64,000 bases of DNA from Escherichia coli (GTDB lineage: Bacteria > Pseudomonadota > Gammaproteobacteria > Enterobacterales > Enterobacteriaceae), in assembly GCF_050320075.1 (NCBI RefSeq), contig NZ_CP190018.1, one strand, 5' to 3'. Below, piece by piece: positions 60,774-61,185 of this stretch. Every line of letters begins with the position of its first letter. The stretch's first letter is position 1. The notes beneath the pieces were generated by a model. The model made no database searches, had not been told where the DNA came from, and saw nothing but the letters and a program-made list of their open reading frames with translations. The position numbers and the translations under genes are program-made.

Positions 60774-61124
60774 AGTAAATAGCTGACTTATGGATGTGCT
60801 GGGGATTCTATGTATTTAGCTGTGGCTTTACCATTACTTTTCCCGTTTTTGACTTAAATAGCAATTTACCCGCCAATTCTTGCTGAACATCTATACTTTT
60901 TTTGTATTTTTATGCGATTCATTGATTTCTGCAGTACGTGCAGGAAGGAATCGCAGAGCAACAGTGAAAGAATATGGTTGCTAATGATTTTATTTGATTG
61001 ATTTCTTTATTGAAAATCAACAATGTGCTTAAAAATCATTCGGGTCGGATTGCCGCGAAAGAAGTGATACACTAGCGCGTCAATATCAGTGCGGTATCAG
61101 TATTCAGGTAGCTGTTGAGCCTGG

Positions 61125-61136
61125 GGCGGTAGCGTG
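61125..61136 (+). promoter_or_regulatory. ops element (GGCGGTAGCGTG) in the 5' leader of the waaQ operon (JUMPstart region; RfaH recruitment)
   Basis: Exact 12-nt ops consensus about 50 bp upstream of the waaQ start. Confidence 0.8.
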
Positions 61137-61185
61137 CTTTTTCTGCTTCACCTTAATCGGATAATCTCAACAAAAAGAGTTACTT

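Follow-up and report, generated by a model that had tools for sequence, protein, structure and literature searches.

The ops/JUMPstart element in the leader of the Escherichia coli waaQ LPS-core operon

We find that the untranslated leader of waaQ in this stretch of DNA carries the cis-acting ops/JUMPstart signal of the E. coli waaQ LPS-core operon, a reading to which we assign a probability of about 0.94. By every feature testable here, the element belongs to the ops and JUMPstart families. Its sequence, position, strand, conservation and identity to studied leaders were established in this analysis, and binding, pausing, polarity and structure are taken from the literature. An ops/JUMPstart element before waaQ is already known, well characterized and part of textbook knowledge. 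RfaH control of the waa operon sets the completeness of the LPS core and, with it, outer-membrane integrity, serum and phage resistance and virulence. That role is established in E. coli, and the value of the present work lies in precise annotation of the promoter, the start site, JUMPstart, ops, the RirA homologue and the probable true start of waaQ. The window, meaning the whole 64,000-nucleotide stretch that was analysed, contains the following features at this locus.

59496-60773, - strand: waaA (kdtA), divergent from waaQ (NF004385, 905.7 bits).
61065-61073, + strand: likely waaQ/rirA promoter, an extended -10 element (TG-a-TACACT) read from the sequence.
61080-61185, + strand: 106-nt untranslated leader at the 5′ end of the waaQ mRNA, placed by aligning it with the 5′ end of MG1655 rirA.
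About 61080-61151, + strand: homologue of the K-12 sRNA gene rirA (RfaH-interacting RNA), 72 nt, by alignment to MG1655.
61088-61142, + strand: terminator-like architecture in the predicted RNA fold, a long imperfect hairpin (61088-61138) with a T5 run (61138-61142).
61098-61136, + strand: JUMPstart (Rfam RF01707), including ops as its 3′ end, by Infernal cmscan.
61105-61109 with 61119-61123, + strand: JUMPstart stem-loop, CAGGT paired with GCCTG (5 pairs, 9-nt loop), immediately 5′ of ops.
61125-61136, + strand: ops, GGCGGTAGCGTG, an exact 12-mer present once in the 64-kb window.
61175-61179, + strand: weak Shine-Dalgarno-like AAGAG, 6 nt before the GTG, read from the sequence.
61186-62244, + strand: waaQ (rfaQ), LPS core heptosyltransferase III, operon gene 1 (NF007742, 712.6 bits).
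62241-63365, + strand: waaG, operon gene 2 (open reading frame; RefSeq WP_000634253.1).
63358-64000, + strand: waaP (rfaP), operon gene 3, cut by the window end (Ec-U3 RefSeq annotation mapped onto the window).

The window is E. coli chromosome, with positions 25001-64000 differing from strain Ec-U3 at 3 of 39,000 bases and positions 1-25000 sharing 99.9% identity with the same strain. The divergent waaA and waaQ genes are separated by an intergenic gap of 412 nt, inside which JUMPstart and ops lie. The waaQ call matches the RefSeq annotation of identical DNA, and the NF007742 alignment spans residues 1-351 of the 352-residue product. An earlier note on this DNA had described a long LPS-core operon, and in Ec-U3 the operon indeed comprises nine genes (waaQ-G-P-O-T-Y-W-V-L; 8.86 kb, R1 core type). 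GC content falls to 30-38% in the distal waa genes, compared with about 47-54% for waaQ, waaG, waaP and waaA, which fits H-NS coating and Rho sensitivity of the distal part. A search for a second ops in the waaQ operon found none, and a single ops is also what has been reported for CFT073. The rfaH gene lies outside the 64-kb window; it is carried by 5,425 of 5,426 complete E. coli genomes, and on the basis of this species-wide conservation it is almost certainly present in the source strain. One of the 5,426 genomes is without rfaH, and one rfaH copy is plasmid-borne. A palindrome, CTGCA-GTACG-TGCAG, lies at 60929-60943, within the variable central segment of the waaA-waaQ gap.

Several other regions of the window were annotated in passing. 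Positions 1-25000 are covered to at least 80% in only 27 of the 5,426 genomes. They begin with an ETT2-associated eip/eilA island (1-10163) that encodes the inverse autotransporter iatC/air (truncated where the window begins), the HilA-like regulator gene eilA, a tip protein resembling IpaD/SipD, a translocon subunit resembling YopB/SseC and a chaperone resembling SycD, and that is followed by the core genes yicS, nlpA, yicL and setC. A P4-like satellite prophage of 11.3 kb (14634-25931) is integrated at the tRNA-Sec gene selC (25906-25996, - strand) and has at its two ends an imperfect direct repeat of 39 nt (14634-14672 and 25893-25931), whose copies share a core of 23 identical nucleotides. 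Its genes, annotated from RefSeq on near-identical DNA, include those for an integrase, Psu (a Rho inhibitor), Delta-like, Sid and Icd-like proteins and a primase-helicase, and Rfam places C4 antisense RNA, isrK and c4-a1b1 at 18924-19200 (- strand). Adjoining the prophage integrase is a 2.7-kb SIR2-family gene, which is likely to be anti-phage cargo. An eight-gene sugar operon (30294-37237), located between yicI and yicH, encodes a BglG-family antiterminator, fructose-type PTS components IIA, IIB and IIC, two aldolases, a ROK kinase and a lyxose/mannose isomerase, and presumably resembles the frz operon of ExPEC.

The ops that the earlier note had claimed in the waaQ 5′ leader is present as an exact 12-mer in that untranslated leader, on the sense (non-template) strand and 46 nt past the transcription start placed by homology (61080). 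It ends 49 nt before the waaQ GTG, which fits the distances of 40-67 nt from ops to start codon in the wzx, kps and rfa leaders (PMC9765446). In ops numbering, G1 corresponds to 61125, the flipped-out T6 to 61130 and the pause position T11 to 61135. Read against the ops consensus GGCGGTAGnnTG, both the segment contacted by RfaH (C3-G8) and the pause-inducing T11G12 are intact. The exact 12-mer had zero matches in 100 dinucleotide-preserving shuffles. With one mismatch allowed its expectation rises to 0.36, which makes the 12-mer by itself no more than moderately special, and three copies of the bare 8-mer GGCGGTAG are present in the window versus 1.24 expected; these figures make a short motif alone weak evidence. 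The decisive evidence for the element is the full-length match to RF01707 (model positions 1-38 of 38), which covers the 39-nt JUMPstart span at 61098-61136 with 55.2 bits, compared with a gathering score of 35 bits, and an E-value of 6.4e-10 for the whole window. JUMPstart was also named in the earlier note. The interval that the note had given, 61081-61185, is essentially the whole 5′ untranslated region and in that sense holds, but it is wider than the element itself. The Rfam scan of 60000-62000 gave no other credible RNA family; Rfam is without a RirA family.

The other two occurrences of GGCGGTAG in the window were rejected as ops. The one at 34428-34435 lies inside an aldolase coding sequence (sense strand) and continues CGGT, without T11G12, and the one at 50225-50232 is on the template strand of yicG, also without T11G12. 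A further copy in Ec-U3 lies on the sense strand of rfaD, within the gene and outside any leader. Intragenic ops-like sites are reported not to recruit RfaH (PMC9765446), with which these coding-region 8-mers are consistent.

The one-mismatch expectation and the count of the 8-mer speak for ops as a functionless chance occurrence. The probability of this is negligible given the empty shuffles, the covariance-model E-value, the invariance of the element in the same position across at least 12 genera and the experimental evidence on identical DNA from CFT073 (PMC9765446). The chance reading is already refuted by conservation and published ChIP data. No sequence feature was found that speaks against the RfaH/ops reading.

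The transcription start at 61080 was placed by homology to the rirA/waaQ start of MG1655, where the 5′ end of rirA is also the 5′ end of the waaQ mRNA (PMC8745692). The extended -10 sits 7 nt upstream of this position, which is the correct distance. Its hexamer occupies 61068-61073, preceded by a poor -35 (TCGGAT, 61045-61050), and the block GTGnTACACTAG is conserved across 13 Enterobacteriaceae waaQ leaders among the matches listed. From these features of the sequence, we infer that the extended -10 acts as the waaQ/rirA promoter. A consensus promoter scan of 60700-61300 returned two weak sites, no more than in shuffles, and missed the extended -10, which homology supports.

Together with the extended -10, the T-run after ops, the AAGAG and the GTG start are kept within the Enterobacteriaceae leaders. 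The GTG at 61186 and the AAGAG are conserved in all 18 aligned waaQ leaders among the matches listed. In MG1655, the waaQ start is annotated as an ATG 36 nt downstream of the RefSeq GTG (61222 versus 61186). The position of this K-12 ATG is CTG in Pectobacterium, Symbiopectobacterium and Brenneria, and the NF007742 profile alignment begins at residue 1 of the GTG-started WaaQ. The K-12 waaQ start has probably been annotated 12 codons too short.

To describe the conservation of the leader, we examined the waaA-waaQ intergenic region, which was found in 5,424 of 5,426 complete E. coli genomes; two lack the leader. Two alleles predominate in the counts, the type of the window (at least 99% identity) in 4,418 genomes and the K-12 type (about 87%) in 952, and the 48 nt over JUMPstart, ops and the T-run are identical between them. 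A few E. coli genomes have a duplicated waaQ leader, with one copy plasmid-borne. Beyond E. coli, a plain DNA-pattern scan with one genome per species gave at least 120 loci, and a WaaQ homologue lies immediately downstream at 18 loci among the matches listed. These waaQ-linked JUMPstart-ops elements were found in at least 12 genera: Escherichia, Citrobacter, Silvania, Kluyvera, Pluralibacter, Kosakonia, Shimwellia, Enterobacter, Cedecea, Pectobacterium, Symbiopectobacterium and Brenneria. When aligned, the waaQ leaders have an invariant JUMPstart-ops block and diverging flanks. Among the matches listed, ops is identical in the 18 aligned leaders with the sole exception of G12T in Brenneria.

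The JUMPstart stem covaries. All 5 pairs are kept in 18 of 18 waaQ leaders among the matches listed, a count to which the three inner pairs, fixed by the search pattern, contribute no information. The second pair varies between AU, GU, UA and GC across the 18 leaders, and it is canonical or wobble in 108 of 118 distinct loci among the matches listed. The JUMPstart-ops pattern also matched contigs labelled Arthrobacter, Acidobacteria, Erysipelotrichia, Leifsonia, Chitinophaga, Pseudonocardiales, Opitutaceae and Veillonellaceae. Several of these off-clade matches are on short contigs or in metagenome-assembled genomes, and they could be enterobacterial contamination or chance.

The term antitermination today includes exclusion of NusG and Rho, counter-silencing of H-NS and recruitment of ribosomes, aspects absent from the earlier note. 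RfaH-dependent antitermination, which the earlier note had read from the leader, is supported by the intact contact bases and by the identity of the leader to that of CFT073, for which ChIP-seq data exist (PMC9765446). In CFT073, the RfaH signal starts at the rfa leader ops, RNA polymerase occupancy in the ΔrfaH strain drops to near background towards the end of the operon, and the RfaH-dependent travelling ratio is ≤0.1-0.34 for wzx, kps and rfa (PMC9765446). The waaQ operon of K-12 is stated to be RfaH-dependent in PMC6358824 and PMC8745692. A crystal structure combined with mutagenesis showed that RfaH reads ops in a non-template DNA hairpin, in which T6 is flipped out into a pocket in the protein's N-terminal domain and G5 packs alongside (PMC5995543). 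The bases shown by mutagenesis to matter are C3-G8 and T11G12, and recruitment is abolished by G4C, G5A, A7T and G8C (PMC5995543); G4, G5, A7 and G8 are all wild type in the window. The ops is, in addition, a consensus pause site at which pausing occurs mainly at U11 (PMC5995543), corresponding to 61135. Once on the polymerase, RfaH stays there, where it suppresses both pausing and termination, keeps NusG and with it Rho away, brings in ribosomes and relieves silencing by H-NS/StpA filaments (PMC9765446; PMC6358824). By analogy with the studied strains, this one would be expected to behave in the same way, both in RfaH loading and in the effect on polarity.

Applied to the window, the published mechanism would run as follows. 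Transcription from the extended -10 promoter would begin at about 61080, and RNA polymerase would pause at ops (61125-61136), mainly at T11. The exposed non-template strand would then form a small hairpin, with C3:G8 as the closing pair and T6 turned outward, that would be read by the N-terminal domain of RfaH. On binding, RfaH would free its C-terminal domain, which would refold to a β-barrel, and would ride the polymerase over the whole operon, suppressing pausing and keeping NusG and Rho off. It would also aid passage through H-NS/StpA filaments on the AT-rich distal genes and could recruit a ribosome to the weakly initiating waaQ GTG, and the roughly 8.9-kb waaQGPOTYWVL operon would as a result be transcribed to its end. 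The 5′ half of JUMPstart (the stem-loop and CAG box) is not explained by a structural model built on ops only.

The covariation of the stem and its tolerance of G-U pairs suggest RNA, and RirA RNA is reported to bind RfaH (PMC5736990, PMC6358824), so that JUMPstart might be an RNA element (a hairpin-stabilized pause or a site for a protein or RNase) that does not act through the non-template DNA. We consider this very unlikely, as the crystal structure and mutagenesis identify a non-template DNA hairpin as what RfaH reads (PMC5995543) and selection on the stem is equally possible at the DNA level; moreover, the DNA and RNA readings are non-exclusive for the 5′ half. The leader may also have a product of its own, a role absent from the earlier note. 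MG1655 rirA (b4760; NC_000913.3 3808166-3808238) is a 73-nt ncRNA directly upstream of waaQ, and its homologue in the window is about 90% identical, has the 5′ end in common and contains both JUMPstart and ops. According to the three reviews from which we draw the details of RirA (PMC5736990, PMC6358824, PMC8745692), the K-12 RNA binds RfaH with polymerase present and in an ops-dependent manner, and its overexpression mimics a ΔrfaH strain. The annotation at the homologous position, the identity and shared 5′ end, these phenotypes and a leader hairpin and T-run that could yield a discrete short RNA would all suit a stretch whose main product is the trans-acting sRNA, with the cis-acting ops secondary. 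This ranking of the two roles is distinctly unlikely in our view: the cis role has direct ChIP and genetic support (PMC9765446), the RirA phenotypes come from overexpression, and the fold of the RirA homologue in the window allele is no stabler than shuffles (z = -0.66). The cis and trans roles are non-exclusive, and we regard it as an even bet that the leader encodes a functional RirA beside the cis-acting ops.

The fold of the leader bears on another explanation, in which RfaH acts chiefly on an attenuator (61088-61138 plus the T-run) and Rho/H-NS polarity is secondary: an intrinsic terminator would stop most transcripts, giving RirA, unless RfaH had been loaded at ops. The predicted fold is terminator-like, with the ops RNA as the 3′ arm of the hairpin and the JUMPstart stem as its tip. 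Across 13 Enterobacteriaceae leaders among the matches listed, 92.7% of its cells remain paired, compared with 29-52% in slid controls, and in these 13 leaders the upstream arm switches UG/CG and GU/AU against the invariant ops arm; the hairpin was derived from one of the tested sequences and the leaders are related, which makes these counts non-independent. In waaQ leaders, the upstream arm pairs with 9.2 of the 14 nucleotides of the ops region, versus 4.7 with the arm shuffled; the values at 100 other JUMPstart loci among the matches listed are 5.8 and 4.55. A T-run follows ops in 13 of 18 waaQ leaders versus 25 of 100 other JUMPstart loci (among the matches listed), and RfaH is reported to lower termination at some factor-independent terminators (PMC2871177). 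Against this, a consensus terminator scan of 60700-61300 found no terminator, and RNAalifold, applied to 17 leaders drawn from three families, recovered nothing beyond the JUMPstart stem and a hairpin of 3 bp in ops; the long hairpin was missed. The predicted stem has a weak base that includes two G-U pairs in E. coli, and the annotated RirA 3′ end lies about 9 nt beyond the end of the K-12 T-tract, a greater distance than is typical of intrinsic release. The minimum free energy of the RirA homologue is -19.3 kcal/mol in the window (z = -0.66) versus -22.5 kcal/mol in K-12 (z = -2.29), and the whole-leader fold (61078-61190) has no excess stability (z = +0.73), so that in the window allele thermodynamics alone establish no structure. 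The loss of polymerase in ΔrfaH CFT073 is, furthermore, progressive towards the operon end (PMC9765446). Action of RfaH chiefly at such an attenuator is unlikely on this balance.

The waaQ leader could be a self-limiting RfaH switch, in which unloaded polymerases would terminate and release RirA, and RirA would titrate RfaH. If so, one 72-nt stretch would serve as a DNA loading site, an attenuator and a decoy-RNA gene. We put this forward tentatively, and the attenuator origin of RirA within it is a plausible suggestion, not a finding, in which our confidence is similarly low. The architecture of such a switch is enriched in waaQ leaders compared with other JUMPstart operons, and the original publication on RirA (Klein et al. 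2016, JBC) may already describe it. Conserved pairing between the ops RNA and the 5′ leader could explain the production of RirA, its 3′ end and the coupling of the cis and trans roles, and this terminator-like pairing is the only part of the analysis with some open value.

Comparison with studied leaders places the RfaH-recruiting ops/JUMPstart signal of the window among close relatives. The waaQ leader of K-12 MG1655 has the same locus, gene order, start-site context, extended -10 and GTG/AAGAG, and the 48-nt block TATCAGTATTCAGGTAGCTGTTGAGCCTGGGGCGGTAGCGTGCTTTTT is identical. The two differ in that the 161-nt promoter-leader stretch is only 87% identical, K-12 has one extra T in the T-run and a stabler RirA fold, and the operon downstream is of the K-12 core type in MG1655, not of the R1 type. 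The K-12-type leader is also the minority allele (952 genomes versus 4,418 of the window type). The intergenic centre (about 60863-61020 in the window) is essentially unrelated to that of K-12, whereas both flanks are at least 95% identical, which suggests an AT-rich central segment that was replaced or is hypervariable.

The rfa leader of uropathogenic CFT073, the strain used in the ChIP-seq study of RfaH targets (Hustmyer et al. 2022; PMC9765446), is closer still. The intergenic regions are identical at 409 of 412 positions, and all three substitutions (60845, 60966 and 61043) lie upstream of the start site, leaving 100% identity over the transcribed leader (61080-61185). Identity is 99.0% over the first 2.8 kb of the operon, and genes and order are the same from waaQ through waaW; at the place of the GT25 gene waaV of Ec-U3, the annotation of CFT073 has a GT2 gene.

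The O-antigen (rfb/wzx), capsule (kps), colanic acid (wza) and hlyCABD leaders have the same 39-nt element, leader position and RfaH dependence (RF01707; PMC9765446), and at least 100 JUMPstart loci not linked to waaQ have the same core in Enterobacterales and Aeromonas. Relative to these other leaders, the ops RNA of waaQ pairs more often with an upstream arm and a T-run after ops is commoner. In the haemolysin (hly) leader, about 600 nt separate ops from the start codon (PMC9765446), compared with 49 nt in waaQ. More distantly, other specialized NusG paralogue systems, for example the UpxY proteins of Bacteroides (PMC11213015), differ in protein subfamily and in recruitment signal, and we claim no membership of the waaQ leader in that group. 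The logic is nevertheless the same, in that a leader signal recruits a NusG paralogue, which renders polymerase processive across a long polysaccharide operon.
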